A stretch of DNA of 52,436 nucleotides from Hyphomicrobiales bacterium. GTDB lineage: Bacteria; Pseudomonadota; Alphaproteobacteria; Rhizobiales; Hyphomicrobiaceae. Each line of letters starts with the position of its first letter. The first letter of the stretch is position 1. The notes under the pieces are model-generated. The model was not told the DNA's origin. It saw only the letters and a program-made list of their open reading frames with translations, and did not search any database. This document shows, piece by piece, positions 14,198 to 43,623 of this stretch. Where the stretch lies: positions 1 to 52,436 of the forward strand of contig JBBRKD010000001.1 in NCBI GenBank assembly GCA_038218255.1. The letters are read 5' to 3'. A program made the position numbers and the translations under genes.

Positions 14198-14201
14198 TGC
14201 A

Positions 14202-27548: not shown

Positions 27549-27576
27549 GAAACTTGACCATCGCCCGTTATAGATT

Positions 27577-27594: not shown

Positions 27595-27609
27595 TTTCTG
27601 GAGCGTCGC

Positions 27610-28701: not shown

Positions 28702-29252
28702 GTGTTCCTTTCAGCACGCAGCGCATCCATCATGTGGCCTATCGGTGTCGCGATGCGAAGGCGACGGTCGACTGGTATGAACGAGTCCTTGGCTTCCGCT
28801 ATACCAATGCGTTTGCCGAGGATCATGTGCCTTCTACCGGCGATTATGATCCGTATATGCATGTTTTCCTTAATTGCGGCGGTGGCAATGTTGTGGCGTT
28901 TTTCGAATTGCCGAACCAGCCCGACATGGGCCGTGACCAAGCAACACCGGCATGGGTGCAGCATCTGGCGTTCGAAGTGGCGGACTTCGATATGCTGCGC
29001 GCGGCAAAAGCGCATATCGAGGGGCAGGGCGTCGACGTGCTTGGGCCGACCTACCACGGCATTTTCCACTCGATCTATTTTTTCGATCCTAATGGCCACC
29101 GGTTGGAGCTGGCGTGCAACATCGGCACGGTCGATCAATATGCCGAACTCGAACGCGTCGCGCCAATGATGCTTGACGAGTGGGCACAAACGAAAAAAGC
29201 GCCCCGCCACGCCGACTGGCTGCATGTGGACCGGGGCTCGCTTGGCGAATGA
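28698..29252 (+). CDS. VOC-superfamily (glyoxalase/bleomycin resistance/extradiol dioxygenase fold) protein
   Basis: 184 aa with a GTG start overlapping the hppD stop (GTGA). Candidate metal ligands sit in [17 protein letters not shown] and GHRLELA. Confidence 0.75.
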
Positions 29253-29408: not shown

Positions 29409-29684
29409 CTAATCATCGTTAAAATACGCGTAATTCGGATCATACACATAATATGCGACCACTGTTTTTGTTTTTTTGACATGCCCCATACCGATGATAG
29501 GTCCAACGACTTCGCGCCCAACGTCCAGACGGTTGTCAATCTCGACGCGAATGAGAATGTCCCATTTGCCGCTGATTGAGCTGATGTCGCAGACATATTT
29601 CAGTTTCGCCTTTGCGAGCGCGGTCGCAACTTCGTAAGTTTTGCCGAGGTCGGTCTGCAGGAAAACAAAAAAGCGTTGCATCAT
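29409..29684 (-). CDS. Stand-alone Lrp/AsnC-type ligand-binding (RAM/ACT-like) domain protein
   Basis: 91 aa. FFVFLQTDLGKTYEVATALAKAKLKYVCDISSISGKWDILIRVEIDN...VGPIIGMGHVKKTKTVV matches the beta-alpha-beta-beta-alpha-beta pattern of AsnC_trans_reg domains. No HTH is present. ATGA overlaps the upstream gene. Confidence 0.6.
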   Translation of the reverse strand: MMQRFFVFLQTDLGKTYEVATALAKAKLKYVCDISSISGKWDILIRVEIDNRLDVGREVVGPIIGMGHVKKTKTVVAYYVYDPNYAYFNDD

Positions 29685-30184
29685 GACGTATCTCCCCGCG
29701 TTAGCATGTCATAAGACGGATCATTGCCGCCGCGCGTGCCTTTGGGAAGCTCCGCGTTCGCGTTATACCATTTTTTATCCGCAATACGCTCGGCACCGTA
29801 ATCGACGACTTCGTTATGCCAAAAGATTAGCCAGTGTTCCGCTACCAATCGTGCTTTTTGTAAATATCGCGCTTGCACCACAAGTTCGCGAGGTTCGTTT
29901 GGCAAATCAATCAAGTGCCAAGCGTCAACATAGGCTTCAACACTGCACATGTCACCATCACCGCTGATGTAGATGTTTGAAATACAATGTCGCGTCGCTG
30001 CCATCGCGCCCATGAAACTCATGGCCACAGAGACAAATCCATCCGCGCCACCACGATAGATAGCGCCCATATCGATTTCGGCATCATCGGCAAAGACGCT
30101 GCGCAACAGCGTCGCATCGCAGCGGTCAAGTGCCCGCGCGTAGGTGTAGAGGAGCTGTGGGATAGCGGAATATGCATCGGTCAT
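29681..30184 (-). CDS. SnoaL_4 / NTF2-like protein
   Basis: 167 aa. IPQLLYTYARALDRCDATLLRSVFADDAEIDMG...HCISNIYISGDGD...VEAYVDAWH fits the SnoaL_4 pattern. The ATG start (30182-30184) shares one base with the TGA stop of the upstream FAH gene (30184-30186). Confidence 0.7.
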   Translation of the reverse strand: MTDAYSAIPQLLYTYARALDRCDATLLRSVFADDAEIDMGAIYRGGADGFVSVAMSFMGAMAATRHCISNIYISGDGDMCSVEAYVDAWHLIDLPNEPRELVVQARYLQKARLVAEHWLIFWHNEVVDYGAERIADKKWYNANAELPKGTRGGNDPSYDMLTRGDTS

Positions 30185-31002
30185 CAGATTTCGATCCTGT
30201 TTTCGATGGCGCCCAGCCCTTCGATTTCCACACGGACACAGTCGCCGGCTTTCAGATAAACGGGCGGCGACAATCCGTGACCCGATCCGCCAGGCGATCC
30301 GGTTGTGATTATGTCGCCCGGTTGCAATGCCAGCGACTGCGCAAGATAGGCAACAATCTCATATGGGTTGCGGTGTAACTGGGCCGTCGATGAGTTTTGA
30401 CGCAATACACCATTGACCCATGTCCTGATCCACAAGCCAGTCGGGTTTGGCACCGCGTCAGCGGTCGTGATCCAAGGCCCAAACGGCCCATAGCCCGGCG
30501 ACCCTTTCGCCAGCACCAGCGTATCGGGTTTGGCGAGCGCACGGGTCGTCAGATCATTCACCACGCAATATCCCGCGATTGCAGACCGCGCGGCATCGAC
30601 CGTCGGCGTTTCTGGGGACGAGCCAATGACGATACCCAGTTCTCCTTCATAATCCATTGTCCGGCAATCGGCCGGAATGTGTATCGGATCGTAAGGGCCC
30701 GCAACTGCACTCGGTGGTTTGATGAACACCGGCGGAAAATCGGGTAGCGCGCGACCCATTTCAGCAGCATGATCGTGGTAATTGAGACCAACGCCGTAGA
30801 ATGCGCCCGGTTGTAATAAAGGCGCACAAAGACGCGTCAGATCGAGCGGCTCTGTCTCGCCCATTGATACGACTAGTTGATCGGATGCAACGCCAAGAAG
30901 GGTGATCATATCACTCGCGAGCGAGGACACGTCGGCGATCCGACCATCAATAACGATACCGGGCGCAATGCCGTGTGCGAACTGATAAGAAGCCAGCCTC
31001 AC
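30184..31002 (-). CDS. Fumarylacetoacetate hydrolase (FAH) family protein, short form
   Basis: 272 aa with a GTG start. Carries GVGLNYHDHAAE, DYEGELGIVIG and GDIITTGSPGG. Confidence 0.85.
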   Translation of the reverse strand: MRLASYQFAHGIAPGIVIDGRIADVSSLASDMITLLGVASDQLVVSMGETEPLDLTRLCAPLLQPGAFYGVGLNYHDHAAEMGRALPDFPPVFIKPPSAVAGPYDPIHIPADCRTMDYEGELGIVIGSSPETPTVDAARSAIAGYCVVNDLTTRALAKPDTLVLAKGSPGYGPFGPWITTADAVPNPTGLWIRTWVNGVLRQNSSTAQLHRNPYEIVAYLAQSLALQPGDIITTGSPGGSGHGLSPPVYLKAGDCVRVEIEGLGAIENRIEI

Positions 31003-31067
31003 CGCGCTTGCCGTTTGACAGTAGGCTGACTGGTCGGGATAGGCCTGTAGGCTTTTGGAAAACCAAC

Positions 31068-31961
31068 ATGCTCGAATCGCGACGATTGCGTCATTTTCTG
31101 ACCGTTTACGAGTTGGGCAGCATCGGCCAGGCCGCCGAACGATTGCTGTTGACGCAACCGGCGCTGTCCAAGAGCATACGGCAGTTGGAAAGCGATTTGG
31201 GGGTTCGCCTGTTCGACCGCACCACCTTGGGCGTTATACCCACCGTTTATGGCAATGCGCTCGCGCTTCACGCCAAGACGATCGATGCCGAAGTGCGAAG
31301 GGCCGAAGCGCAAATCCTGTCGCTGCGCGGCAAGGCGCGCGGTCAGGTTTCGGTCGGCGTCGGTCCCAGCGTTGCGGCGAATCTGATGCCGCTTGCGACA
31401 CTTTCGCTGCATCAGCTCCATCCCGACATCGAGTTGAACGTAACCGAAGGATTGATCGACGACATCCTTCCGATGCTGAGGCGCGGCGAAATTCAGGTTG
31501 CCGTGGGTGCATGGCCCGAAATTACGGAAGCAATTTTCAACACTGAGCTTCTGATCGAAGACATGATCGAAGTCTACGGCGGCGTGGACCACCCGCTCGT
31601 CGGCACCACTGTTTCGTTGAAAGAATTGCTCGAACATCCATGGGCTTTGCCGCCCTCGTCGCAGCGGTGGCGACAAAATCTTGACGATCTGTTTTTTGCA
31701 CAGGGACTGTCGCCCCCCAAGCCCAGCGTCACAAGCAATTCGGCAAGTTACCTTAAAGAGCTGATGCGGCGCGGCGGTTATCTCAGTTTCCTTCCGCGCC
31801 AGCTCGTTGGGGATCGCACGGGGCTGGCGATCATCGAAACAGACATTCCAAAAATTCGTCCCAGCGTCACGATGACGTACCGTGAACGGTCATTGCTTGA
31901 CGCGCCATGCGGAGAATTCGTCCAAGCCATGCGCTCTGCTGCTGCTGAAATCGTGACTTGA
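31068..31961 (+). CDS. LysR-family transcriptional regulator
   Basis: I trimmed the start to ATG 31068 (MLESRRLRHFLTVYELGSIGQAAERLLLTQPALSKSIRQLE). It is divergent from the FAH operon across a 65-bp gap. Confidence 0.88.
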   Translation: MLESRRLRHFLTVYELGSIGQAAERLLLTQPALSKSIRQLESDLGVRLFDRTTLGVIPTVYGNALALHAKTIDAEVRRAEAQILSLRGKARGQVSVGVGPSVAANLMPLATLSLHQLHPDIELNVTEGLIDDILPMLRRGEIQVAVGAWPEITEAIFNTELLIEDMIEVYGGVDHPLVGTTVSLKELLEHPWALPPSSQRWRQNLDDLFFAQGLSPPKPSVTSNSASYLKELMRRGGYLSFLPRQLVGDRTGLAIIETDIPKIRPSVTMTYRERSLLDAPCGEFVQAMRSAAAEIVT

Positions 31962-31967: not shown

Positions 31968-33167
31968 TTATAGCAGCCCCTGTGTTATCCCGAGATAGAG
32001 GATGTCTTTGGTGAAATCGCACGAATATCCGATCCATGCATCGTTGAGGAAGCGACCCGCCTCATATTCTGTTGTCGTGCCGTAACCGCCAAGAATTTGC
32101 ATGCAAAGCTCGGCATTACGTATCGCCGCATCAACGGCACGTGTCTTGGCAGCCGGCCCTTTGAACATTGCCGCGGCCATCGGATCCGTGTCGCATGCCA
32201 GCGCGGCATCCCAAGCAACAAGGCGCGCGGTATGGACCTCGACTGCCATTTCGGCGAGCTTGAGCGCCACCGCCTGATGCTGGGCAATCGGCTGACCTGT
32301 GCTTTTTCGATTGCGCGCGTAGTCGAGCGCATAGTCGTAGGACGCCCGCGCCAACCCGACAAAGCAGGCCGCAAGGCAGACCGGCATTTCGGGAATCATG
32401 CCGAACAACATGGCTGCGCCACCTTCGGCTCCGACACGTGAGGTGGCAGGGACGCGAACATCGTCGAAATGAAGCTCGGCATGGCTGGTCAGTGGCCAGC
32501 CGATCAGGTGCGTTTTTTTGCCCACGCGCAGTCCGGACGTTGCCGCTGGAATATGAAAAACGGTCAGCCCCGCCATGACCGGCTTGTCGGGGTCGGTGCG
32601 CGCAATAATGAAATAGCTGTCGGCCACGCCAGCGTTGGTGATGAACGCCGATTTCGCACCCGTCAGGACATAATCATCGCCGTCACGCACGGCGCGCATT
32701 TTCGGCCCGAATGCTGGATTTGGCCCCGCCGCCATCAGTTCTGAACCTGCAACATCGGGCTCACTCTGCGCGCCCGCCAATACCATGTCGGGCGACGCTA
32801 CGAATGCCCGAAGGAAATCTGAAGCCTGTTCTGGCGTGCCGCCGCGCAGCATCATCAACGGCATTGTTGACGTCAGCGAAAAATAATCACCCGCAATCCC
32901 GACATCGGCGGCACCAAGCTCTTCCATGACGATTGCGGCGTCGATGCAAGCCAATCCAAGTCCGCCATGCGCCTCGGGCACAAACAACTTGGTCAGTCCA
33001 AGCGCAACGCCTTGTTGGAAAACCGGATGAACGGCATCCCACGGATTGGTTGGGGCACCGGCCCGTCGGGTACGCTCGACCAGCGGACGGATCGCGTTCG
33101 ACGCAAAATCGCGTGCCGTCTTTTGGAGCATGCGCTGTTCATCGGTCAGCGTGAGCGACATTGCCAT
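31968..33167 (-). CDS. Acyl-CoA dehydrogenase family protein
   Basis: Starts LTDEQRMLQKTARDFA and shows an acyl-CoA dehydrogenase fold throughout (GAKSAFITNAGVADSYFIIAR, ILGGYGTTTEYEAGRFLNDA). ATG 33167 has GGAG 8 nt upstream. GTG 33176, which overlaps the upstream stop, is an alternative start. Confidence 0.8.
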   Translation of the reverse strand: MAMSLTLTDEQRMLQKTARDFASNAIRPLVERTRRAGAPTNPWDAVHPVFQQGVALGLTKLFVPEAHGGLGLACIDAAIVMEELGAADVGIAGDYFSLTSTMPLMMLRGGTPEQASDFLRAFVASPDMVLAGAQSEPDVAGSELMAAGPNPAFGPKMRAVRDGDDYVLTGAKSAFITNAGVADSYFIIARTDPDKPVMAGLTVFHIPAATSGLRVGKKTHLIGWPLTSHAELHFDDVRVPATSRVGAEGGAAMLFGMIPEMPVCLAACFVGLARASYDYALDYARNRKSTGQPIAQHQAVALKLAEMAVEVHTARLVAWDAALACDTDPMAAAMFKGPAAKTRAVDAAIRNAELCMQILGGYGTTTEYEAGRFLNDAWIGYSCDFTKDILYLGITQGLL

Positions 33168-33172
33168 TGTCG

Positions 33173-34150
33173 TCACTCCGCCCGCACGGCGAGGACGATC
33201 TTGCCATGCGTATGCCCCGTCTCGAGCTGGGTATGCGCTGTACTCGCTTGATCGAGCGGCAATATTGCCAGCTTCGGCGCACGCAGGGCACCCGCCTCAA
33301 ATGCGCCGCGCAATGAATCGAGAATATCCGGGCGCGCGCTGAATGCAACGATCTTGGTCATCACACCATATTTAGCCATCAGCCGGTCACGGTTGCCCAT
33401 TTCCATCTGATCGCCGCGCAAAACCACAAGAAGTGTGCCACCTCGTTTGAGGACGGTGTAGGATTTCAGGTTCGTCTCACCACCAATCGGATCGAGGACG
33501 ACGTCGATGTCCTGCAACACCTCGGCGAAATCTGTTGTTGTGCGATCGATCACCTGATCCGCACCGAGCGAACGGACATAGTCGATATTATCAGTACTGC
33601 ATGTCGCGGCAACCCAGGCCCCCAGACGCTTGGCGATCTGGATACCAAATGATCCAACCCCGCCGGCCCCTGCATGAACGAGCACGCGGTCACCCCGTTT
33701 GACGCCCGCAAGATCGGCAAGACCGAACCATGCAGTGCACCCCGCCATTGGAACACTGGCAGCTTCGGCGAAGCTCAGATTGGCGGGCATCCGGCGGATC
33801 AGATACGACGGCGCGGCAACATATTCGGCATAGGCCCCCGGTTTCGCGGGATCGAGGAGCCCCCAAACGCGATCGCCGACGTCAAGTTCTAAGCCGGATA
33901 CATCGAACCCTTTTGCAACGATCACACCGGCGACATCCTGCCCGAGAATATGGGGCGGCGAGACCGGAAACATTCCCTGAAACCACCCGCGTCGCAGCTT
34001 CGTCTCGAACGGGTTGGTTCCCGCTGCATGCACTTCGACAAGCACTTCATTGTGCGGCATCATCGCGGGGCGGGAAACATCGCGCACTACCAGTCCATCG
34101 GGCGGCCCAAATGATTCCATCACAACCGCACGCATCGTTTCCTTGCTCAT
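33173..34150 (-). CDS. Medium-chain dehydrogenase/reductase, NADPH:quinone oxidoreductase-like
   Basis: Starts MSKETMRAVVMESFGPPDGLVVRDV, with a VLVHAGAGGVGSFGIQIAK nucleotide site and HGKIVL at the end. ATG 34150 overlaps the upstream stop (ATGA). Confidence 0.85.
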   Translation of the reverse strand: MSKETMRAVVMESFGPPDGLVVRDVSRPAMMPHNEVLVEVHAAGTNPFETKLRRGWFQGMFPVSPPHILGQDVAGVIVAKGFDVSGLELDVGDRVWGLLDPAKPGAYAEYVAAPSYLIRRMPANLSFAEAASVPMAGCTAWFGLADLAGVKRGDRVLVHAGAGGVGSFGIQIAKRLGAWVAATCSTDNIDYVRSLGADQVIDRTTTDFAEVLQDIDVVLDPIGGETNLKSYTVLKRGGTLLVVLRGDQMEMGNRDRLMAKYGVMTKIVAFSARPDILDSLRGAFEAGALRAPKLAILPLDQASTAHTQLETGHTHGKIVLAVRAE

Positions 34151-35115
34151 ACTTGTTCCTTTTCGATCGCTACAATCTGTTTGCCGACGCCCGAGCCATT
34201 GAACAGCGCGCAAAATGCGCTCGGTGTCTCTTCCAGCCCCCGCCAAATGGTCTCAACCGGTCGCAGCGTTCCCGCATCGAGGAATTCGGCAAGGTGCGAA
34301 CGCGCTGCTTCAAACTCAGGCGCGTGATCGGCAAGCAGAAATCCACTTACCGTCGCGCGTTTGAAGAGCAGCGGCAGCATCGAGCCATAGGGGCGCGGCT
34401 GCGCATCATTATAGCCCGATATGAAACCCAGTAGCACGACGTGCGAATGAAGGTTCAAACGTGTCAGCATCGCATCGTGAAACGCGCCGCCAACACCATC
34501 GATCACATAATCAAGGCCATCAGGCAATTGTTGCGTGTCGTCGGTCGCGCCATCGAACCCTAGGTCGTCGGTCAGATAATTTACCTGCGCCGTGTCAGCC
34601 ACAAACCCCGTCACGTGCGCGCCTGCGGCCTTCGCGATTTGCCCTGCCAAAATGCCGACTGAGCCTGCCGCTGGCGCAATCAGGACGTTTTGCCCGGCAT
34701 AAATGCCGCGCGTCGTGAAATAGGCGGTCAGACCGGAAGGCCCGAGAACACTCAAATGCCGCTCCGGCGGGCCAAGCGTCGCATCGAGCTTTTGCAGCGT
34801 CTCACCACGACAGGACACGCGCTCCTGCCACCCGAGATCACCTGCAACCAGATCGCCCAATGCAAATCGGGGATCGCGACTTGCAAGGACATGGCCGACA
34901 CCGCGTCCGTCGACGACCTGATGCAGCGGCATCGGCGGGCCGACGCGACTCGTCGCGCTCATCCGCAGGCGGGGAAAGGGGTCCATCGACAGATGCGAAA
35001 CTTCGACGAGCACATTGCCATCACTCACACTGGGGTCAGCTGACTGAACCAGTGCGAAATCATCGGGTGTTGGCAAGCCGTCGGGATAACGCACAAGGTG
35101 CACTTGCTCGATCAC
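34147..35115 (-). CDS. NADP-dependent oxidoreductase, alkenal/enone (double-bond) reductase-type MDR
   Basis: Carries YPDGLPTPDDFALV, LSMDPFPRLRM and APAAGSVGILAGQIAKAAG. The GTG start overlaps the upstream stop (GTGA). Confidence 0.8.
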   Translation of the reverse strand: MIEQVHLVRYPDGLPTPDDFALVQSADPSVSDGNVLVEVSHLSMDPFPRLRMSATSRVGPPMPLHQVVDGRGVGHVLASRDPRFALGDLVAGDLGWQERVSCRGETLQKLDATLGPPERHLSVLGPSGLTAYFTTRGIYAGQNVLIAPAAGSVGILAGQIAKAAGAHVTGFVADTAQVNYLTDDLGFDGATDDTQQLPDGLDYVIDGVGGAFHDAMLTRLNLHSHVVLLGFISGYNDAQPRPYGSMLPLLFKRATVSGFLLADHAPEFEAARSHLAEFLDAGTLRPVETIWRGLEETPSAFCALFNGSGVGKQIVAIEKEQV

Positions 35116-35921
35116 GCCACGCTTTCCAGAAATTCGTGGAGGATTGCATTAAACTGCTCGGGCGCTTCGATATTCGAAATATGGCCTGCGCCTTCGATTT
35201 CAGCGTAGCGCGCATCAGGTATCATCTGCGCCATCGTGCGCATGATGTTCGGCGGCGCGACGCGATCAGCACTGCCGACGATGATTTGGGTCGGCACGTC
35301 GATGCCGCCCAAGTCGGGGAAGTCGGTAAATCGCGTGACTGCTTCGAGCGTCTTGAGATATGGGCCCGCGCGTAAGCCTGCTAGACTAGCAACAATTGCA
35401 TCCCATGCAGCCGGCGCAATGTCTGCGCCCGCCAAACCTTTAGCGACTTCGGGCGCGATATCGGCGGTTGATTTTCCTTCGAGCAAAGGTTTGCGCCGCG
35501 CCGCCAGAAACGCTTCGACTTTTTCGGGCGCCTGCGTTTCCGTGGATCCCGCCGAGCAATCGGCAAGCGTCATACTAGCCACCCGCGTGCGATGCCGATT
35601 CCACAGGTCAAGCGCGACGCGTCCCCCCATCGACAGCCCGACAACATGCGCCCTCTCGATGTTAAAATAATTGAGAACGCGAACGGCGTCGTCGGCAAAA
35701 TCCGTGAATACGCGAGCGCTTTCAGTGTCTCCGCTGTCGCCATAACCGCGCGCATCAATCGCGATCGTGCAATAGCGTCCGGCCAGGGCAGAAAGCTGCG
35801 CGGCCCAATTTCCGCGTGCACCGCCAATACCGTGCAGAAATAAGACGGCTGGTCCGGCTCCACGCGCCACATCGACGCATAACATAGGCGATGGGCCGAT
35901 ATATTCCGTCTCAATATTCAC
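35112..35921 (-). CDS. Alpha/beta hydrolase (NicD/enol-lactonase-like)
   Basis: 269 aa with VLFLHGIGG, the GLSMGG nucleophile elbow and a C-terminal GAGHISNIE histidine. The GTG start overlaps the NicX-like stop (GTGA). Confidence 0.85.
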   Translation of the reverse strand: MNIETEYIGPSPMLCVDVARGAGPAVLFLHGIGGARGNWAAQLSALAGRYCTIAIDARGYGDSGDTESARVFTDFADDAVRVLNYFNIERAHVVGLSMGGRVALDLWNRHRTRVASMTLADCSAGSTETQAPEKVEAFLAARRKPLLEGKSTADIAPEVAKGLAGADIAPAAWDAIVASLAGLRAGPYLKTLEAVTRFTDFPDLGGIDVPTQIIVGSADRVAPPNIMRTMAQMIPDARYAEIEGAGHISNIEAPEQFNAILHEFLESVA

Positions 35922-36961
35922 GCGAGTTCGGGCACCACTTTGCCATCGACCACTACCGGCACGTCATCAAGCGTGATCGTGCAATTGCGGACGGGCAAGT
36001 CGAAGTGGCCAAGTGTGTGCCGACCTGCAAACGGATTGGCGCCGGTCGAAAACAGAAAATTCCCGGCAAATGCACGCTGTTCTGTCCCATTGGTGTCGCG
36101 CTTGTCATAGAGCATCATCGATTCCCAGCGTGCGGCATGATTCATGCCCCAGCCGACATGGCTCGTCCCATAGGCTTCGGGATCGCCCCAGGCATCGAAA
36201 TAGGCGCGCATCAGGTCTGCGTCAGTGCCGACACCTTCGACGGCTGTTACATAATCGGTCTCGACCACCAGCCGGATTGGTTTTTCCAAATAGCGTTTAA
36301 ACGTGATGTTGATGTCGCCTTCGTCGAGCACGAGGATGCCATTGACCGTTCCCAGCGCAGGAAAACAGCTGCAGATGCCCCCCGGCCATGTCGCCAACGA
36401 ACCGGGATCGCGCGCTACGCCCAGATTGCCGCCGACGCGAGCGCCTTCCATGCCAATGCGCAGATCGGTTCCCGCATCCGATACGACATGCATCGTTTTT
36501 GCGGCCTGCATCATCGCACGTCCTTTGAGCACGCGCGGGATCAGGTTTTCGTCGGTTGCCAGCCGCTCAAGGGCTTCGGGATGTTCGTTGCTGATGTAGA
36601 GAACGCGACGCCCAGATTGCATGATTTCGGGCGTTTCTTCCGAATGCATCAATCCTTCGACCGTCATGTCGGCGATAAAATCCGCGACTTTCAGGGCCTC
36701 GACCACGGTGCGACGCCCTCCGATGGCCACCGATGATCCAGTCGACCGTATTGGCACCGGCGCGTCATGGGGGGCCGTCGGCATGACGACATGAACCGGC
36801 TGTGCCCCGATTCGCAGCAGCGCCAGTTCGGCAAGCTGAACATTGACTGCGCGCGATTGGGTTTCGGACAGGATCACAACCTCTTGCCCCGCGAGCACAT
36901 TCGACAGTCGGAAAGTGCGCTCGAACGCGTCGATCCATTTACCTTCAATACGCTCAATCAT
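35918..36961 (-). CDS. NicX-family Fe(II) ring-cleavage dioxygenase (2,5-dihydroxypyridine 5,6-dioxygenase-like; aminopeptidase-T fold)
   Basis: 347 aa, colinear with Pseudomonas putida NicX as I recall it. YGTSHVGWGM matches YGISHIGWGL, QRAFAGNFLFSTGAN matches ARAFYGNFLFSTGPN, and GHFDLPVRNCTITLDDVPVV matches CHLDIPLRNCDIYLDDKAVV. The positions of the reported Fe ligands (His, His, Asp) are conserved. Confidence 0.85.
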   Translation of the reverse strand: MIERIEGKWIDAFERTFRLSNVLAGQEVVILSETQSRAVNVQLAELALLRIGAQPVHVVMPTAPHDAPVPIRSTGSSVAIGGRRTVVEALKVADFIADMTVEGLMHSEETPEIMQSGRRVLYISNEHPEALERLATDENLIPRVLKGRAMMQAAKTMHVVSDAGTDLRIGMEGARVGGNLGVARDPGSLATWPGGICSCFPALGTVNGILVLDEGDINITFKRYLEKPIRLVVETDYVTAVEGVGTDADLMRAYFDAWGDPEAYGTSHVGWGMNHAARWESMMLYDKRDTNGTEQRAFAGNFLFSTGANPFAGRHTLGHFDLPVRNCTITLDDVPVVVDGKVVPELA

Positions 36962-36970
36962 ACGCCTGCC

Positions 36971-37723
36971 TCATGTTTGTCGCCGACAATCGATCCGCCC
37001 GAGCGGCCCGAAATCGGCAGTTGCATTGTCACCCAAACCCAAAACCACCGAACGGCACATTGCACCGGTTGCCACGAGATCGCCCTTTCGCACCGGACGT
37101 TCGGTTCCGCTGCGGACCCGCACGAGCCATTCCAACGCGGTGCGCGGATCGCCAAGCACGGCCGCCGCATCTCCGGTCTGTTCCACTTGGCCATTGCGCA
37201 TAAATGTGACGCGCAAATTCGCAGGCTCGTTAAGTTCAGCGAGCGCAAACGCCTCGCCGACAATCAAACCCAGTTGCGCCGCATTATCGGCAACGATGAA
37301 CGCAGCGCCAAGTTCAAGCGCATCGTTGCGGCTTGGCCGATTGATCTCTACGCCGATCATCGCACGTCCGATAGCAGCGGCTGGATCGACATCTTCGGGA
37401 TCAGCGGCCATTTCAAACACGATCTCAGGTTCGATCTCTGCCGCGCGCGTTCCCGAGATTGGCGGCAATTCCGCATCTACCGAAACGCTCCCTTGGAAAA
37501 TTCGCCCGTAAATCGGCTCGGCGATCTGCAACATTGCTTGTGCGCCTGCACTTGTCGCCCCGACTTTCCAGCCGATTACCGGCGGCATCTGCGCCGCCGT
37601 TGCGGTCGCGACGGCATAACCCTCGCTCAACGTCAGCTCAGGCGCAGGTCCGACCAGTGCATTGCCCGACAGGCGCGCACTGGCCAGTCGTCTGCCAAAA
37701 TCAGTAGGGACCTCATTCATCAT
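36971..37723 (-). CDS. 2-keto-4-pentenoate hydratase / 2-oxohepta-3-ene-1,7-dioate hydratase-like (MhpD/HpcG branch of the FAH fold)
   Basis: 250 aa, with IGWKVGATSAGAQAMLQIAEPIYGRIF and the C-terminal GDLVATGA typical of the family. Confidence 0.75.
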   Translation of the reverse strand: MMNEVPTDFGRRLASARLSGNALVGPAPELTLSEGYAVATATAAQMPPVIGWKVGATSAGAQAMLQIAEPIYGRIFQGSVSVDAELPPISGTRAAEIEPEIVFEMAADPEDVDPAAAIGRAMIGVEINRPSRNDALELGAAFIVADNAAQLGLIVGEAFALAELNEPANLRVTFMRNGQVEQTGDAAAVLGDPRTALEWLVRVRSGTERPVRKGDLVATGAMCRSVVLGLGDNATADFGPLGRIDCRRQT

Positions 37724-37801
37724 CGGTCGTCATATCCCGTGAGCACACTCTCGCCACACAACTTATACGGCGCCGCCGCGCGCATTCCGGTTATGTCACC
37801 C

Positions 37802-39382
37802 TCAAACCCGTGCATCGAAATCTGCGGCATGCGCGATCGCACGCGCTGCGGCCCTGTCCGCAAGTGCCAAAACGGTAAATGTCGGACTGACGGCGCCGAT
37901 GGTGGGGAATTGCCCGCCACCCGCGACGACCACATTGGGGGCCTCATGCAGCTGCCCGTAACTGTTGACGACCGAACCGCTCGCGTCGGCACCCATGATC
38001 GTGCCCCCTGAAAAATGCGCAAACGTGGTTGTCGGCAGCACCCAGCTTTCGGTCGCGCCAGCGGCTTTCATCACTCGCATGCCAAGCGCGTTGGCATGTG
38101 CCCACAGCTTCCGGCTTTCCGGGTCCAGCGTATAGATAGTACGCGCCAGCGGCATTCCCACATCATCGCGTTCGGATGCCAGCTCGATGCGGTTGGAAGC
38201 ATTGGGCAGGCTCTCGACAATCCCGTTGATGACGGCGAGGTGCTGTGATGCCCGCTTGATGAACCCATCGAGCTCAGCCCCGAACAGATCGGTGCGCGTC
38301 ATCGCAATGCCGAGCAGGTCGTTCGGTTTTAGCGAACCACCAATGCCCCATGAGTAGCTGCCAAATGGCCCTGCCGGACGATCTTTGCGATACTCATCCT
38401 GATTGGTCAGCATCCCGGCCGACAAGCCGAGATGGCATTCGGTTTCCTCTCTGAACAGGCCGTGGACGTTGGCGATGTTGTGCGCGTTGAAGTATTTTCC
38501 GATGAGGCCATTACGATTCGAAACTCCTTGCGGATGTTTCGCATGCCGAGTCGCCAGTAAAAGGCGGGCATTCTGGGCCGCAGCGCCCGCCAATATGATC
38601 AGTGTCGCTGGCTGTTCGAGCGTCTGCCCCTTGGCATTGCGATAAATCAGGCCGCGTGCACGACCATTTTCGTCGAGCGCTATGCCGGTGACCCGGCTCT
38701 GTGCCTTGAAGATTGCCCCGGCCCTGACCGCACTGGGCTGATGAACGACCAACGGATTGGCGAGCGCACCCGTTGGGCATCCGGCATCGCACCAGCCGTC
38801 ATATTGGCATGCCGGGCGGCCCTTATATTCCACTGATGTGACGGCCATCGGCGCAGGCGCGACTCTCATCCCCAGCGCTTCAAACCCGCGCGTCACGATC
38901 TTCCCTTGAGCGAAAGTTTTCAGCGGAGGCATTGGATAAGGCTTGCCCGCAGGTCGCCAAGTCTCGGCTTTTGCATCGCCTGAAATACCCACTTCGTCCT
39001 GTACCGCGTCGTAGTGCGGCCTCAGATCGTTATAAGAAATTGGCCAGTCGAGCCCGCGTCCGTGATCACTGAACATCGTGAAATCGGCCGGCTGCATGCG
39101 AGGCCATCCGGCATAATGATGCAGCGCGGCACCACCAAGACCCCAGCCATTCGACATGTTATGGCCAACCCGGTCAGGCCCGCCAGCGATGACCGGTGAC
39201 CCGCCCCATTTCAACCGCCGTGACCAAATTTGCGAACTGCGCAGGTCGCCCAAAGTCCAGGGTGGTCCCGCGTCGAGGACAATGACCATTCGACCGGCCT
39301 TGGCGAAACGTTCCGCCATAAGCGAGCCGGCCGCTCCTGCGCCCATTATAACGACATCGACATGTTCGAGAGTTTCACCCAC
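37802..39382 (-). CDS. GMC-family FAD oxidoreductase (gluconate 2-dehydrogenase flavoprotein-like)
   Basis: 526 aa with a GTG start, VDVVIMGAGAAGS at the N-terminus and GGTIMG...NVVVAGGGQFPT at the C-terminus. It is a clear paralogue of 44404-45954; both share LDAGP.W.LGDL.SSQIW.RRLKWGG.PV. Confidence 0.85.
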   Translation of the reverse strand: MGETLEHVDVVIMGAGAAGSLMAERFAKAGRMVIVLDAGPPWTLGDLRSSQIWSRRLKWGGSPVIAGGPDRVGHNMSNGWGLGGAALHHYAGWPRMQPADFTMFSDHGRGLDWPISYNDLRPHYDAVQDEVGISGDAKAETWRPAGKPYPMPPLKTFAQGKIVTRGFEALGMRVAPAPMAVTSVEYKGRPACQYDGWCDAGCPTGALANPLVVHQPSAVRAGAIFKAQSRVTGIALDENGRARGLIYRNAKGQTLEQPATLIILAGAAAQNARLLLATRHAKHPQGVSNRNGLIGKYFNAHNIANVHGLFREETECHLGLSAGMLTNQDEYRKDRPAGPFGSYSWGIGGSLKPNDLLGIAMTRTDLFGAELDGFIKRASQHLAVINGIVESLPNASNRIELASERDDVGMPLARTIYTLDPESRKLWAHANALGMRVMKAAGATESWVLPTTTFAHFSGGTIMGADASGSVVNSYGQLHEAPNVVVAGGGQFPTIGAVSPTFTVLALADRAAARAIAHAADFDARV

Positions 39383-39532
39383 GCGACAACGCTACGCAAC
39401 GCTCGCATCGTGCGCTATTTCCAACGGCGGCCGAGCCCCATGCCTGCGGTTATGCCCTCAATCGCCGAATGAAGTTGCGCTTGCGGTGTAGGCGCCCAAT
39501 CATCGCTTCGACCGCTAACCGGAGACCAATCG

Positions 39533-39841
39533 ATGATCACTGCGACCGTTCGTTTCAAGTTGCGCCCTGGCGTCGATTACGATCAGGCGATCGCAGAAAT
39601 AAAGAACATGATTGCTATGTATCAAAGCCAGCCGCAATTGATCCGCAAACAGATTTGTCTTAATGTCGAAAAAGGCGAAGGCCGCAGCTTCTACCTGTGG
39701 AAAGATCGGTCGGCAGCGGAAGCATTTTTCGAAATGGCACGCCCGATGTTGCGCGAACAGACGGGCGCCGAACCCGAGATCGAATTGTTGGAAACGCACG
39801 TCTTGGTGGATAATTCCACAAACGATGTTTTCATCGCATGA
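39533..39841 (+). CDS. YdhR-like small protein (dimeric alpha/beta-barrel, ABM-type putative monooxygenase)
   Basis: 102 aa with ATG 7 nt after GGAG. GEGRSFYLWKDRSAAEAFFE resembles E. coli YdhR GGIYLFTDEKSALAYLE. Confidence 0.6.
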   Translation: MITATVRFKLRPGVDYDQAIAEIKNMIAMYQSQPQLIRKQICLNVEKGEGRSFYLWKDRSAAEAFFEMARPMLREQTGAEPEIELLETHVLVDNSTNDVFIA

Positions 39842-40692
39842 GCGACCCGCGTCCGATCCTCGTCGTTGGTGGCACCGGAATGCTGGGGCGGCCTGTCGTT
39901 GATGCACTTGCGGCGCGCGCGATACCGGTTCGCGTGCTGTCGCGTGACACGCATGTTCCGAGACCGAATATTCAGTTCGTGCGGGGCGCTGTCGAGGACG
40001 CTAGCGCGCTCGCTGCGGCGGTCGAAGGGTGCCGCGCGGTGCATATCAATCTGCGCGCGACGAATGCCGCCGAACTCAACACGGTCGAAATCGGAGGCAC
40101 CCGCGCCGTGGTAGCGGCCTCGCGGGCGGCAGGAATTGAACGCATTGGTTATGTGTCAGGGGCAGGCATGGAAGCGGCTGATCCCAAATTACCGATGGCT
40201 CATGCCAAGCAATCAGCTGAAGCTGCCGTGCAGGGGTCCGGCGTCGAATGGATGCTATTCAGAGCGACGCATTTCATGGAGTCGCTCGACCTGTTCGTGC
40301 GCAGCGGACGCATCGAACTGATGACCCCGCAGCCGCTTGCCTATCATTATCTTGCGGCCCGTGACTACGGTCGGATCGTTGCTCAGGCCTACCTCGAGCC
40401 GTCAGCTGCAAATCAGGCCTTTACGATGCTCGGCCCGCAACCACTAACGATGCGCGCGGCATTGGACATCTATGTGTCGCGGCTGCACCCGGGGATGAAA
40501 ATCCGGGCCACGCCGACGGCCATTCTGCGTTTGGTCGCCGCTCTGACTGGCAACCGCGAACTCAAACATGCATCGCTCCTGTTCTCGACCTTTCCGAAAA
40601 TACCCGAGACTGGCGATCGTGACATAACCGATACTCTACTTGGCCGCGCTGAAACCACGTTGGCACAATGGTGCGACACGCGCGCAGCATAA
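39838..40692 (+). CDS. NmrA-like / atypical SDR NAD(P)-binding protein
   Basis: 284 aa with ILVVGGTGMLGRPVV Rossmann. ATGA overlaps the upstream gene. Confidence 0.75.
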   Translation: MSDPRPILVVGGTGMLGRPVVDALAARAIPVRVLSRDTHVPRPNIQFVRGAVEDASALAAAVEGCRAVHINLRATNAAELNTVEIGGTRAVVAASRAAGIERIGYVSGAGMEAADPKLPMAHAKQSAEAAVQGSGVEWMLFRATHFMESLDLFVRSGRIELMTPQPLAYHYLAARDYGRIVAQAYLEPSAANQAFTMLGPQPLTMRAALDIYVSRLHPGMKIRATPTAILRLVAALTGNRELKHASLLFSTFPKIPETGDRDITDTLLGRAETTLAQWCDTRAA

Positions 40693-40815
40693 CTTCGGCT
40701 TATGCCGTTGCCCAGATTATCTCCCTCGGCGGAGCTTCCGCAATCAGCCATGTCGCTTGTGCTGACGAAAAAGGGAGTGGTTCGCCTGCATCCCTTCAGC
40801 AATAGGGAGGCTAAC

Positions 40816-43110
40816 ATGAAAAATTCCATTGCTGCGCTGCTTGGGAGCGCGGTTATTTTGCCGCTGATCGCAACGTCGCCGGCCCATTCGCAAACGACCC
40901 CTGAAGCACAAACCGGTGGTATCACGGATATCGTGGTGACCGCGCGGCGGCGCGCCGAGACGCAGCAATCGGTACCGATTGCCATCACTGCCTTCGGTGC
41001 CGAGGCATTGACGGCACGGTCGGTCACGCAAGTCAGCGATCTTGCCGACGCGACGCCGAACCTGACGCGGACCGCAGGGCCGACGGGCGGCAATGATGCA
41101 TTTTTCTTCGTTCGTGGCATTGGCCAAGTCGATTCCAACCCGGCGGCAGATCCCGGTGTGGGCATCTATATTGACGGCGTTTATCTGGCGCGCATTCAGG
41201 GTGCCTCAGTTGATGCATTCGACCTCGACCGCGTCGAGGTGCTGCGCGGCCCGCAGGGAACGCTCTTTGGACGCAATACCATTGGCGGTGCCGTAAGCTT
41301 GACGACGCGCGACCCGGGCAAAGATCTTGCCTTTGCGGGACGCGTTACGGTTGGCAGCCGCAACCGCTTCGATGTTTTTGGTGCCGTCGATCTTCCGCTC
41401 TCCGACACATTGGGCGTCCGCGTTTCAGGCGGCTATCGCAAGCAGGACGGTTGGGGTCTCAACGTTTATACCGGCGACCGTTATTCAAGCGTCAAAAATC
41501 TTAGCGGCCGCATCAAGCTGGTCTGGCAGCCAACGGCCGACGTGAAGCTGTCGCTGTCTGCTGATGCCCTTCAGGCACGTGGCACAAGTGCGCATACAAT
41601 TCTCGCCGGCGCGCGCGCTGGAGCGACGACGCCGTTTGCCGTGCCGCTGCCTTTTGATTTGCTGGCCGATACATCGACCGATCTTTCAAAGAATTTCGAA
41701 TCGATCAAGCCACAGAACGACAATGACAATCGCGGTGTGACAGGAACGCTCGAAGTCGGGCTCGGCGGGCCGACGCTTAAGGCGATCGTCGCTTATCGCG
41801 CGGTCGATCAAACAGCAGCAAACGATTTCGATGGCACCGGTTACCGCCTTTACGACAATATTTTCGATACCCAGTCGAAGCAGCTAAGCGGGGAACTTCA
41901 GTTGCTCGGTGATGCACTCGACAATCGATTAAGTTACGTCCTTGGCGGCTATGCGTTCCGCGAAAACGTCCGTCATAACAACGCGATTTGCCTCGGCACG
42001 AATGTTGGCGGCAACCCTTTTGCAGCCGTGCGCAATCAAGGTGGTTGCATCCGCAACAATCAGTTTTTTACGCTGCATGTTGAAAGCTTCGCAGGATTCG
42101 GACAGGCCAGTTTCAAGGTCACACCACAATTATCGCTTACGGTCGGTGGCCGCTACACGCGCGAAACCAAGCGGCAGGCCTTCGATTTCTTCTTGGACAA
42201 TCGCGACGGCGTCGTTGGATTTATTCCGGGTTTCCCGCCGCCAATCCCGAATTTCCCGACACTGTCACCACGCAACCCTCGGGTTGGGGTGCCGACAACT
42301 TACAATGCCAGCTTTGGTGAGTTTACGCCAAAGCTTGGCATCGACTTCAAACCCTCCGAAAATGTCCTGCTGTATGCGAGCTATTCACGCGGCTTCAAAT
42401 CAGGGGGATTTAATGGTCGGCCATCGCCGACGCCAACGGGCGCATTCCGGCCAATCCAGCAATATGACCCGGAAAAGCTGACCGCCTATGAAGCAGGCAT
42501 CAAGTCGGATTTCTTTGATCGGCGGCTGCGCTTTAATCTTGCCGGTTATTACTCGATTTACGACGGTATTCAGCTACTTGTCATCGACCCAGCAAGCGGC
42601 TTCTTTAATACAGCCAACGCGGGCAAGAGCGAAATTTACGGCTTCGAACTCGAGGTTACGGCGAAGCCAATCCCAGCGATGACAGTTTATTCGAATATCG
42701 GCTACACGCATGATCGTTACACCCAACTCGATCCCCGCGCGGTCGGTTTTACGTTCGCAACCCGCCTGCCTGTGACACCGCGCTGGACGGTCGGCCTTGG
42801 CGGCGATTATCGCGCCGATCTCGGCACCTTAGGATCGCTGACGCTGCGTGCAGACTATAATTATCGCAGCTCGGTCTATTTTGGCGCGACCAACGAACCG
42901 CTTGAATTTGGTGCGTCACGCGGACTGCTCAACTTGCGAGCGACCTACGCACCTGAAAATGAGCATTTCAAACTTTCGGTGTTCGGCCTGAACGTGACCG
43001 ACAAGCGCTATATCACCAATGCCCAGGATGTCCGCAATGCGCTCGGCATCGCCTTTGCCAGTCCATCCTCGCCTGACGAATGGGGCGCTGAGCTTGAGGT
43101 CAAGTTTTGA
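40816..43110 (+). CDS. TonB-dependent receptor (paralogue of 11100-13376)
   Basis: I trimmed the start to ATG 40816, with GGGAGG 5 nt upstream. The signal peptide ends PAHSQT. The TonB box/plug reads ITDIVVTARRRAE...VEVLRGPQGTLFGRNTIGGAV. The C-terminus is ...LEVKF. Confidence 0.9.
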   Translation: MKNSIAALLGSAVILPLIATSPAHSQTTPEAQTGGITDIVVTARRRAETQQSVPIAITAFGAEALTARSVTQVSDLADATPNLTRTAGPTGGNDAFFFVRGIGQVDSNPAADPGVGIYIDGVYLARIQGASVDAFDLDRVEVLRGPQGTLFGRNTIGGAVSLTTRDPGKDLAFAGRVTVGSRNRFDVFGAVDLPLSDTLGVRVSGGYRKQDGWGLNVYTGDRYSSVKNLSGRIKLVWQPTADVKLSLSADALQARGTSAHTILAGARAGATTPFAVPLPFDLLADTSTDLSKNFESIKPQNDNDNRGVTGTLEVGLGGPTLKAIVAYRAVDQTAANDFDGTGYRLYDNIFDTQSKQLSGELQLLGDALDNRLSYVLGGYAFRENVRHNNAICLGTNVGGNPFAAVRNQGGCIRNNQFFTLHVESFAGFGQASFKVTPQLSLTVGGRYTRETKRQAFDFFLDNRDGVVGFIPGFPPPIPNFPTLSPRNPRVGVPTTYNASFGEFTPKLGIDFKPSENVLLYASYSRGFKSGGFNGRPSPTPTGAFRPIQQYDPEKLTAYEAGIKSDFFDRRLRFNLAGYYSIYDGIQLLVIDPASGFFNTANAGKSEIYGFELEVTAKPIPAMTVYSNIGYTHDRYTQLDPRAVGFTFATRLPVTPRWTVGLGGDYRADLGTLGSLTLRADYNYRSSVYFGATNEPLEFGASRGLLNLRATYAPENEHFKLSVFGLNVTDKRYITNAQDVRNALGIAFASPSSPDEWGAELEVKF

Positions 43111-43143: not shown

Positions 43144-43623
43144 TTACGCTGGATACGCCAAACCGTCATTGAAAGCCGCGCGCAGGATCACCGGGGTCAG
43201 TAATACACCAATCAAGACCGAATAGGCGATCTTGAAGGCAAGAACGATAAGGAACGGCCAGTCACCCGTGGTTGGCCAAATCAGCGCCAGCAGGCCCACG
43301 CTTATCGGTGCCAGCACGAGAGTCATGACGATTGCTAACATAAGCCCGCGGAGGATGACATTGCCGGGTAGGCGACGTTTGTAGGCCAGCGGACCGATGG
43401 CGCCTTTCCGAACCCGCGCGCGCGTCAGCAATGTAAGCCCGATCGTCATCATAAGCGAGATCATGAACGTCGTCGGGAGCAGATCGAATGCCAGCCCCTG
43501 CATGCCCCAAAGCCCGATTTTGGTCAGCCCCCCGAACATCAGAAACACGAAACCACCCCCAACAATGGCATTCAGCGCCACTCCGATCCTGCTCTCGACT
43601 GCGATATAACGGTCATGTGTCAT
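43144..43623 (-). CDS. Small integral membrane protein, four predicted transmembrane segments, unknown function
   Basis: ~159 aa with four hydrophobic stretches: GVALNAIVGGGFVFLMFGG, LLPTTFMISLMMTIGLTLL, LMLAIVMTLVLAPISVGLLALIW and FLIVLAFKIAYSVLIGVLLTPVIL. I recognise no family. Confidence 0.55.
   Translation of the reverse strand: MTHDRYIAVESRIGVALNAIVGGGFVFLMFGGLTKIGLWGMQGLAFDLLPTTFMISLMMTIGLTLLTRARVRKGAIGPLAYKRRLPGNVILRGLMLAIVMTLVLAPISVGLLALIWPTTGDWPFLIVLAFKIAYSVLIGVLLTPVILRAAFNDGLAYPA

Follow-up and report, generated by a model that had tools for sequence, protein, structure and literature searches.

Which ring compound is opened by the enzymes of a small gene cluster in a Hyphomicrobiales bacterium, and what becomes of the product? 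The stretch analysed here (contig JBBRKD010000001.1, 52,436 nt; hereafter the window, a 52-kb region to which all gene numbering and coordinates refer) carries a row of seven minus-strand genes at 31968-39382, one of which encodes a relative of NicX. NicX-type enzymes have so far been known for one reaction, the opening of 2,5-dihydroxypyridine (DHP). We put at roughly 55% the probability that these genes specify the central, ring-opening part of an aerobic pathway, so far uncharacterised, for a para-diol other than DHP, whose ring-fission product is reduced. We infer all reactions, by family-level analogy, and the nature of the substrate.

Open reading frames (ORFs) were listed and translated, family classes were taken from Pfam and NCBIfam scans and PDB searches, and gene junctions were read base by base. 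The seven ORFs and their classes match the positions given in the original prediction:

37802-39382, minus strand: GMC flavoprotein of the fructose/glucose-dehydrogenase catalytic-subunit type (GMC1), with the Cys-rich motif PACQYDGWCDAGCP (Pfam, PDB search)
36971-37723, minus strand: MhpD/HpaH/NahK-type protein of the FAH superfamily, putative 2-oxo-enoate hydratase or vinylogous beta-keto-acid decarboxylase; core gene (Pfam, NCBIfam, PDB search)
35918-36961, minus strand: NicX-family mononuclear Fe(II) ring-cleavage dioxygenase of group A, 347 aa; core gene (PDB search, AlphaFold model, precomputed Pfam PF26233)
35112-35921, minus strand: alpha/beta-fold hydrolase with the nucleophile motif GLSMGG; core gene (Pfam, NCBIfam, PDB search)
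34147-35115, minus strand: ADH_N_2 medium-chain dehydrogenase/reductase (MDR), putative NADPH enone (C=C) reductase; core gene (Pfam, NCBIfam, PDB search)
33173-34150, minus strand: MDR of the PIG3/quinone-oxidoreductase type; core gene (Pfam, NCBIfam)
31968-33176, minus strand: acyl-CoA dehydrogenase (ACAD), MCAD-like; accessory gene (Pfam, NCBIfam, PDB search)

Iron site and substrate pocket of the dioxygenase

By sequence and predicted structure, the dioxygenase is a genuine NicX-family Fe(II) protein (Pfam PF26233) and not an M29 peptidase. It was matched by phmmer to NicX of Pseudomonas putida (7CN3) with an E-value of 1.1e-57, residues 11-343 aligning with residues 10-342 at 37% identity. 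Its AlphaFold2 model (pLDDT 91.7, pTM 0.88) was aligned by Foldseek with 7CN3/7CUP at a TM-score of 0.90-0.91 and an rmsd of 2.1-2.3 A, but with the M29 aminopeptidases AmpT, PepS and AmpS at only 0.53-0.66 and 10-14% identity. No Peptidase_M29 Pfam match to the dioxygenase was obtained even at E ≤ 10. Local Pfam and NCBIfam scans as a whole returned nothing at this threshold, the model sets being used without PF26233; the precomputed Pfam assignment of the protein and its relatives is PF26233:NicX. A peptidase of family M29, the alternative named in the original prediction, was rejected on the missing profile match, the low TM-scores and a metal site that follows the His-Ser-His-Asp pattern of NicX. 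The label "peptidase M29" on some relatives is source annotation.

In NicX, Fe(II) is held by H265, S302, H318 and D320 (PMC7910607). The equivalent residues of the window protein are H268 (SHVGWG), S305 (FLFSTG), and H319 and D321 (GHFDLP); the two histidines and the aspartate had already been pointed out as retained, and the fourth ligand, S305, is also there. NicX H105 and R293 are retained as H106 and R296. Conservation was surveyed in 120 database representatives with at least 65% identity to the window dioxygenase (65-77%), in which the ligands H, H and D are invariant (120/120) and the serine is present in 119/120.

The contacts to the substrate are changed. NicX positions DHP via L104 and H105, with E177 hydrogen-bonding N1 and O1 and H189 hydrogen-bonding O1; activity is reduced to 2.7% in the E177A variant and to 6.9% in H189A and is absent from the double mutant, and no NicX substrate besides DHP has been reported (PMC7910607). 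The window dioxygenase carries N179 in place of E177 and T191 in place of H189, together with Phe for E308, Gly for V175 and Met for L104, and the alignment across the changed segment is ungapped and well anchored. Only H105 is retained of the His105-Glu177-His189 network with which a strict 2,5-dihydroxypyridine 5,6-dioxygenase (EC 1.13.11.9) binds DHP. In NicX numbering, M104, H105, G175 and N177 are invariant in 120/120 representatives, and position 189 is T in 105 and S in 15 of them. Across the wider NicX family (184 clusters at 50% identity, collected at E ≤ 1e-30), positions 177 and 189 are variable, and sequences nearer NicX have mostly E/Q and H.

A tree was calculated by neighbour-joining only, with 100 bootstraps and a midpoint root. 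The group of the window protein, termed group A (at least 120 clusters at 90% identity), was monophyletic in 85/100 bootstraps and is nested with a sister assemblage, B; the midpoint root separates group A from P. putida NicX. Position 308 is F, or R/S/H/A, in group A. The comparison of phylogeny and active sites proposed alongside the original prediction places group A in a clade separate from NicX, with the iron site kept and the DHP contacts changed.

Genes of the maleamate pathway were sought by tblastn with the canonical nic cluster of a Pseudomonas plasmid (L084) as the query, at E ≤ 1e-3 in the window and E ≤ 1e-8 in relatives. No match to NicD, NicE, NicF, NicA or NicB was found in the window, which bears out the earlier statement that the rest of this pathway is missing from the region, and NicE, NicF and NicA were also not found within ±10 kb of 82 related loci. 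The only NicD matches in these loci were the alpha/beta hydrolase genes themselves (23-26% identity), and NicB gave a single partial match, in the group-B locus L052. The hydrolase of the window had been taken for NicD by its position and size; it is only 26% identical to the NicD of L084, over 127 residues (36.6 bits), which is generic fold similarity, and NicD orthology was rejected. A maleamate cluster, in which a NicD-type deformylase adjoins the dioxygenase and NicF and NicE are present, is not found in the window. Judged by these searches, the context of the dioxygenase is not that of a maleamate pathway.

The protein could nevertheless be an ordinary 2,5-dihydroxypyridine 5,6-dioxygenase that feeds a standard or slightly modified maleamate pathway, with the amidase and isomerase encoded elsewhere and the neighbouring genes loosely linked or unrelated. 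This is what the automatic JGI annotation of close relatives says ("2,5-dihydroxypyridine 5,6-dioxygenase"); the full metal site, H105 and R293 are conserved, the hydrolase gene follows the dioxygenase gene as in some nic-type clusters, and the view taken here is confined to the window, so that amidase and isomerase could sit elsewhere in the genome. However, the two residues needed by NicX for DHP turnover, E177 and H189 (PMC7910607), are N and T/S in 120/120 relatives, the hydrolase is not a NicD orthologue, NicE and NicF are missing within 10 kb in 82/82 loci, and the five core genes are translationally coupled and collinear across classes, as described below. We consider this explanation very unlikely. 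Since the residues that grip DHP are lost and the usual partner enzymes are missing, the dioxygenase probably acts on a different ring compound: a non-DHP substrate is made likely by the changes in the pocket, which are strictly conserved, by the conservation of the five-gene module and by the lack of NicE and NicF near relatives. The proposal of a different substrate, a different fate of the ring-fission product, or both, is strengthened by the replacement of the E177 and H189 equivalents in all 120 relatives.

The five-gene module and its partners

The last five genes of the row are chained by 4-nt overlaps, as had been claimed and as could be read directly: GTGA at the junctions of the dioxygenase with the hydrolase and of the hydrolase with the enone reductase, ATGA between the enone and the quinone reductase, and GTGA between the quinone reductase and the ACAD, the latter only if GTG 33176 is the ACAD start, a proviso already made. 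Because of the ATGA overlap, the start of the quinone reductase was set to ATG 34150 and not to the upstream TTG 34246. The MhpD-like and NicX-like genes are separated by a 9-nt gap, with GAGG ahead of the NicX-like ATG, and the GMC and MhpD-like genes by a gap of 78 nt. In a promoter and terminator scan, counts did not exceed those expected from shuffled sequence; searches of the window for Rfam families and tRNAs gave no matches.

Relatives were collected by scanning a single genome for each GTDB species; 223 were obtained, and the 80 best were retained. Flanking regions were analysed over ±10 kb per locus by tblastn and all-against-all clustering, with genes in relatives called by tblastn and simple ORF rules. 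Counts for group A refer to 20 loci, including the window, many of which are contigs of metagenome-assembled genomes (MAGs). A core of five genes, encoding the MhpD-like protein, the NicX-like dioxygenase, the alpha/beta hydrolase, the enone reductase and the quinone reductase, is collinear in 20/20 of these loci. The module occurs in Sphingomonadales, Burkholderiales, further Proteobacteria and a single Anaerolineae MAG. The hosts include Erythrobacter, Sandaracinobacter, Polymorphobacter and Variovorax as well as MAGs of Burkholderiales, Acetobacteraceae, Oceanicaulis, Gammaproteobacteria and one of Anaerolineae. Since the core is collinear in all 20 loci from several bacterial classes, the grouping of the genes is not due to chance, and translational coupling together with this collinearity implies that the reductases are not bystanders. 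Judged by gene order, the five genes form a conserved module and travel together from one lineage to another. The literature on NicX homologues with other substrates and on this gene combination yielded no description of the module.

The other genes recur less regularly, with the following frequencies in the 20 group-A loci:

15/20: ACAD, varying in position and strand
14/20: LysR-type regulator
13/20: FAH-family protein
12/20: SnoaL_4 protein
12/20: 458-aa protein with no family or PDB match
11/20: GlcD-like flavoprotein
9/20: benzoate-CoA-ligase-type ligase
7/20: Gluconate_2-dh3 small subunit
7/20: GMC flavoprotein
7/20: TonB-dependent receptor

The row of seven genes, originally viewed as one functional unit, is thus reduced to a conserved core of five: the ACAD varies in position and strand, and no more than three loci have a GMC gene ahead of the core (the window and the Sphingomonadales MAGs L006 and L012). 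In Variovorax and Burkholderiales loci, a GMC gene and a small subunit with a twin-arginine translocation (TAT) signal form a pair directly downstream of the core. The protein of about 458 aa, present at 7626-9002 of the Erythrobacter litoralis locus L001 (CP017057) and in 11 other group-A loci, has no Pfam, NCBIfam or PDB match. Its gene adjoins that of the GlcD-like FAD-linked oxidase, just ahead of the five core genes; in the window it is missing, and a GMC gene takes its place. In Variovorax davisae, genes for DUF1302, DUF1329, BNR-repeat and MMPL/RND proteins lie directly upstream of the core (L002, 2657-9192), a set that hints at the uptake of a hydrophobic substrate in this species. Some group-A loci also contain a putative aldolase of the DHDPS family.

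Against the NCBIfam equivalog models, the four core proteins other than the dioxygenase stay far under the cut-offs. The best family matches of the hydrolase are PcaD-like and esterase-like, all below cut-off; it reaches 72 bits with the HsaD model (cut-off 400), 44 bits with the BphD model (cut-off 462) and 53 bits with CumD (PDB), so that it has only the fold and the GxSxG nucleophile motif in common with the meta-cleavage-product (MCP, C-C) hydrolases MhpC, BphD and HsaD and stays below their equivalog level. The enone reductase groups with CurA, PTGR and plant double-bond reductases, and the MhpD-like protein matches HpcG, NahK and MhpD at 40-62 bits. In the ACAD, D387 (motif SCDFT) aligns with the catalytic Glu376 of MCAD. 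The possibility that the group-A ACAD is a disguised flavin monooxygenase of the type found in clade B (see below) was rejected: the protein resembles MCAD (165 bits) and has only 23% identity with the clade-B enzyme. GMC1 and a second GMC protein of the window, GMC2 (44404-45954), are paralogues (52% identity) and have a Cys-rich motif, PACQxDGWCDAGCP, that resembles the one in fructose and FAD-glucose dehydrogenases. The step catalysed by the GMC dehydrogenase is probably periplasmic, because the small subunit encoded at 43820-44410 carries a twin-arginine signal; no cytochrome c subunit was seen near the GMC genes of the window.

The same module could serve an N-heterocycle. The substrate would then be a substituted (carboxylated or alkylated) 2,5-dihydroxypyridine derived from picolinate, nicotinate, quinolinate or an alkaloid, and the resulting substituted N-formylmaleamate would be deformylated by the hydrolase and reduced rather than isomerised. 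Pyridine rings are the target of every family member known so far (PMC7910607), N179 can donate a hydrogen bond to a ring N-H or accept one from it, the accompanying aryl-acid-type CoA ligase could activate a pyridine-carboxylic acid, and the linked hydroxylase module described below includes a RidA-type deaminase. On the other hand, neither an amidase nor a hydroxylase for N-heterocycles, be it a molybdenum enzyme (NicAB/PicA-type) or another, is conserved with the module, which leaves the release of nitrogen unexplained, and a quinone reductase in the invariant core better suits a benzoquinone/hydroquinone couple. On balance, a substrate of this kind appears unlikely.

Neighbouring genes and a possible salicylyl-CoA 5-hydroxylase link

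The functional neighbourhood extends over roughly 29.7-51.3 kb of the window and is thus larger than originally delimited. Beyond the seven genes, it comprises:

29681-30184, minus strand: SnoaL_4 (NTF2-like) protein; accessory gene
30184-31002, minus strand: FAH-family protein of the HpaG/HpcE decarboxylase-isomerase or diketo-acid hydrolase type; accessory gene
30975-31961, plus strand: LysR-type regulator, likely true start ATG 31068
39838-40692, plus strand: NmrA-like NAD(P)-binding protein, divergent from the operon and recurring in some group-A loci
40702-43110, plus strand: TonB-dependent receptor, likely uptake component
43820-44410, plus strand: Gluconate_2-dh3 small subunit with TAT signal, forming a predicted periplasmic flavoprotein dehydrogenase with GMC2
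44404-45954, plus strand: GMC2 catalytic subunit, paired with the TAT small subunit
45951-49283, plus strand: fused protein of the indolepyruvate-ferredoxin-oxidoreductase (IOR) family, 1110 aa, DUF6537
49280-49693, plus strand: 4HBT thioesterase
49648-51288, plus strand: benzoate-CoA-ligase-family ligase

The operon had been said to have no regulator of its own. The LysR gene, however, abuts it, with 6 nt between its stop codon and that of the convergent ACAD gene and 65 bp to the divergent FAH gene, and it recurs beside the operon at 47-63% identity in 13/82 related loci (in 14 of the 20 group-A loci by clustering). The FAH protein is related to HpaG/HpcE and diketo-acid hydrolases and more distantly to maleylpyruvate hydrolase. 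The genes for the IOR-family protein, thioesterase and ligase (45951-51288) form one co-directional, overlapping string, and IOR-family genes also lie near NicX-like genes in L012, L030, L034, L064 and L085. A counterpart of the ligase is found at 54-64% identity in 11 related loci, nine of them of group A, and at 66-70% identity in canonical aryl-CoA 5-hydroxylase modules. The ORFs 39515-39907 and 43144-43629 have no family matches; the former, with a low third-position GC content of 0.54, is probably not a gene.

In clade B (56-63% identity; Stappia, Vineibacter, Hongsoonwoonella, Microthrix and others), the partners of dioxygenase and hydrolase are an ACAD-fold group-D flavin monooxygenase in 45 loci and an AMP-ligase in 44, often together with a flavin reductase and a TRAP transporter. 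The plasmid collection contained no member of group A or B, only canonical nic clusters and a further group, C (54% identity), on replicons of Ensifer, Shinella and Aminobacter. On the Ensifer plasmids, group C is accompanied by the clade-B type of monooxygenase, a flavin reductase and a glutamine-synthetase-like gene. One such locus (L083; Ensifer adhaerens plasmid p1, NZ_CP083351.1, 155767-163495) contains a NicX-like gene of 54% identity, annotated as peptidase M29, and the gene order ACAD-fold monooxygenase, 430-aa alpha/beta hydrolase, TetR, glutamine-synthetase-like protein, flavin reductase and APC permease, a context reminiscent of gamma-glutamylation-dependent arylamine pathways.

A second aromatic module, a complete one of the aryl-CoA 5-hydroxylase type, occupies positions 475-10934 of the window:

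475-1872: aldehyde dehydrogenase
1875-2720: p-hydroxycinnamoyl-CoA hydratase/lyase equivalog (457 bits, cut-off 276)
2745-4013 and 4374-5678: two ACADs
3979-4377: RidA
6342-6905: MarR
6833-7585: short-chain dehydrogenase/reductase (SDR)
7582-9939, minus strand: bifunctional salicylyl-CoA 5-hydroxylase/oxidoreductase of the SdgC / 2-aminobenzoyl-CoA monooxygenase-reductase type (NCBIfam equivalog, 1268 bits, cut-off 1078), possibly linked to the operon
9936-10934: double SnoaL protein

The CoA ligase usual for such a module is not contained in it but is encoded at 49648-51288, at a distance of 40 kb. Gentisyl-CoA is formed from salicylyl-CoA by SdgC-type enzymes (PMC13215587), and 2-aminobenzoyl-CoA monooxygenase/reductase yields 5-hydroxyanthraniloyl-CoA or its reduced form (PMC3534580). 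Homologues of the hydroxylase occur near NicX-like genes in four related loci (L087, L038, L041 and L051). In L038 and L041, a gene 51-52% identical to 7582-9939 directly precedes the NicX-like gene in the same orientation, with genes for an SDR, a MarR protein (L038 only), a benzoate-CoA-ligase-type ligase and RidA divergent from it. In the group-A locus L087, the hydroxylase module precedes the core at a distance of about 3.7 kb, and between the two are a GlcD-like gene and two genes without assignment. Hydroxylases of this kind yield aromatics with a para-hydroxyl group.

These cases raise the possibility that the dioxygenase is a non-cupin gentisate-type enzyme acting on a product of CoA-dependent para-hydroxylation, namely gentisate, gentisyl-CoA, 5-hydroxyanthranilate or its CoA ester. 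Such a role would connect the operon with the hydroxylase module (2.7-9.9 kb) and with the thioesterase and ligase genes (49.3-51.3 kb). The clear equivalog score of 7582-9939 and the loci just described are in line with this idea, as are the presence of the module's benzoate-CoA-ligase-type ligase in nine group-A loci, the lack of a cupin gentisate dioxygenase among the scanned ORFs of at least 130 aa, and the smaller residues at positions 175/177, which would free space for a ring substituent at the site of the DHP N-H. Against it, in a reverse scan, none of the 80 closest metagenomic hydroxylase loci had a NicX-like gene in its flanks; the canonical metagenomic operon consists of hydroxylase, SDR, MarR, (enoyl-CoA hydratase), ACAD, RidA and ligase and carries genes of the beta-oxidation type instead. 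Moreover, the hydroxylase is missing from most group-A loci, and the two modules are 26 kb apart in the window. After the 0/80 result, the hydroxylase module was demoted from a general upstream partner to a minority scenario, and a gentisate-type role is quite unlikely. The occasional link suggests that, in such a minority scenario, clades A and B may cleave para-hydroxylated aromatic acids made at the CoA level. In its widest form, which we regard as a distinctly unlikely prospect, the two clades would be an unrecognised class of para-diol/para-aminophenol ring-cleavage enzymes for carbocyclic aromatic acids, possibly as CoA thioesters (gentisyl-CoA, 5-hydroxyanthraniloyl-CoA); they would replace cupin gentisate dioxygenases and would provide the opening of the ring downstream of enzymes of the salicylyl-CoA 5-hydroxylase / 2-aminobenzoyl-CoA monooxygenase type, and the maleyl-type product would be reduced to a 3-oxoadipate-like compound.

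Further aromatic genes are scattered over the window. At 27114-29252, a MarR gene is divergent from a gene for 4-hydroxyphenylpyruvate dioxygenase (27586-28701; equivalog, 373 bits), followed by one for a 184-aa VOC/glyoxalase protein. The former enzyme was dropped as a pointer to homogentisate as the substrate, because no homologue of it was found within 10 kb in 82/82 related loci; no homogentisate dioxygenase was seen in the window. A stretch of the aromatic-catabolism type at 13445-21272 includes genes for OsmC, an SDR, an NmrA-like protein and two Amidohydro_2 proteins (LigW/decarboxylase-like) at 14202-15767 and 18756-19835. The alpha subunit of a Rieske oxygenase is encoded at 19977-21272, but the scanned ORFs showed no beta subunit, and at 11100-13376 there is a gene for another TonB-dependent receptor. 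A LuxR-type regulator with an autoinducer-binding domain lies at the window edge (51473-52264), with no LuxI-type synthase noticed among the scanned ORFs of at least 130 aa.

A candidate pathway and its counterparts

To our knowledge, cleavage of a para-diol ring always gives a cis-ene-dione (maleyl) product. The known fates of this product are isomerisation and hydrolysis (gentisate, homogentisate), reduction with NAD(P)H (maleylacetate reductase), or deformylation followed by amidase and isomerase (maleamate). With the dioxygenase gene translationally coupled to those of the hydrolase and both reductases, a reductive fate fits best.

The candidate pathway may be outlined as follows. The quinone reductase would keep the substrate, or its quinone form, in the reduced state. 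The NicX-like Fe(II) enzyme would then open a para-dihydroxylated ring beside one hydroxyl group. The ring could belong to a hydroquinone, to a compound like gentisate or to a dihydroxypyridine with further substituents, plain 2,5-dihydroxypyridine not being among the candidates. From the ene-dione product, the alpha/beta hydrolase may release a formyl or an acyl fragment, and the maleyl-type C=C bond could be saturated by the enone reductase, comparable to maleylacetate reductase, instead of being processed by an amidase and an isomerase. The resulting oxo-acids would be hydrated, decarboxylated or hydrolysed by the MhpD-like and FAH-family proteins, and the CoA ligase and ACAD would complete breakdown at the CoA level. 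LysR is the presumed layer of control, with the TonB-dependent receptor and the periplasmic GMC dehydrogenases as a putative layer of uptake and pre-oxidation. Our leading guess for the substrate is a carbocyclic compound, either a para-diol or a quinone, that bears a carboxylate or a CoA-activated side group, the main alternative being a substituted dihydroxypyridine.

Several points weigh against a reductive pathway for a non-DHP para-diol. No experiment or paper in the literature ties any member of the clade to a substrate. N179 could hydrogen-bond a lactam N-H, leaving room for a dihydroxypyridine-type substrate. No ring hydroxylase is conserved inside the group-A module, so that the origin of the para-diol is unaccounted for; the hydroxylase gene is present in only 4/87 NicX-like loci, plus the window at a distance of 26 kb, and the reverse scan was negative. 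The roles of the hydrolase, reductases and MhpD-like protein are family-level analogies with scores far below equivalog cut-offs, and the comparison rests on many MAG contigs viewed over ±10 kb per locus.

Group A is a large subfamily with a wide phylogenetic spread. Its members retain the catalytic iron but have a different, strictly conserved pocket, a five-gene module of their own and no maleamate enzymes encoded nearby. Its characterisation would extend the His-Ser-His-Asp dioxygenase fold to a new substrate, establish a new lower pathway in which a maleyl-type ring-fission product is reduced, and correct the widespread automatic labels "2,5-dihydroxypyridine 5,6-dioxygenase" and "peptidase M29". 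Cultured hosts of the module include Erythrobacter litoralis (CP017057), Variovorax davisae and Polymorphobacter multimanifer.

Among known systems, the CoA-dependent route to gentisate in Streptomyces sp. WA46 (SdgA-D) and the 2-aminobenzoyl-CoA route of Azoarcus evansii resemble the window in the hydroxylase fusion, aryl-CoA ligase and thioesterase, and in a few genomes such genes adjoin NicX-like genes. No cupin gentisate 1,2-dioxygenase was seen among the scanned ORFs of the window, and the association with NicX-like genes is rare. After hydroxylation, the gentisate route takes a different course, and for the A. evansii route we know of no established fate of the product.

The hydrolytic branch of meta-cleavage (MhpB-MhpC-MhpD, BphC-BphD-BphH, HsaC-HsaD-HsaE) shows the same succession of dioxygenase, alpha/beta-fold hydrolase and MhpD-type hydratase, and a CoA ligase and ACADs for the acid fragment are nearby, as is the DHDPS-family putative aldolase in some group-A loci. 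The window dioxygenase, however, is not a vicinal-oxygen-chelate extradiol enzyme, the hydrolase reaches only 44-54 bits against MCP hydrolases, and two invariant MDR reductases are present but no MhpE/MhpF pair.

With NicX of P. putida KT2440 (7CN3/7CUP), whose functional equivalents are Hpo, VppE, PicD and HpaX in nicotine, picolinate and 5-hydroxypicolinate pathways, the window dioxygenase shares the fold (TM 0.91), 37% full-length identity, the His-Ser-His-Asp site, H105 and R293, and an alpha/beta hydrolase gene following that of the dioxygenase. It differs in the residues at E177, H189 and E308, which are N, T/S and F (or R/S/H/A), and in forming a separate monophyletic clade; where NicX has NicD, NicF and NicE, it is partnered by an MhpD-like protein and by two reductases, one of the enone and one of the quinone type, and the neighbouring regulator is of the LysR type, in contrast to the MarR-type NicR.

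Hydroquinone and hydroxyquinol pathways employ the benzoquinone reductase PnpB, the hydroquinone dioxygenase PnpCD or HapCD, and maleylacetate reductase. From general knowledge, these pathways rely on cupin or two-subunit dioxygenases and a maleylacetate reductase of the iron-ADH type, whereas the window combines a NicX fold with MDRs, and its module adds a hydrolase and an MhpD-like step. Likewise on general grounds, the logic is similar in both: a quinone reductase would keep the diol reduced, an Fe(II) enzyme would cleave the ring, and the maleyl-type double bond would be saturated at the expense of NAD(P)H.

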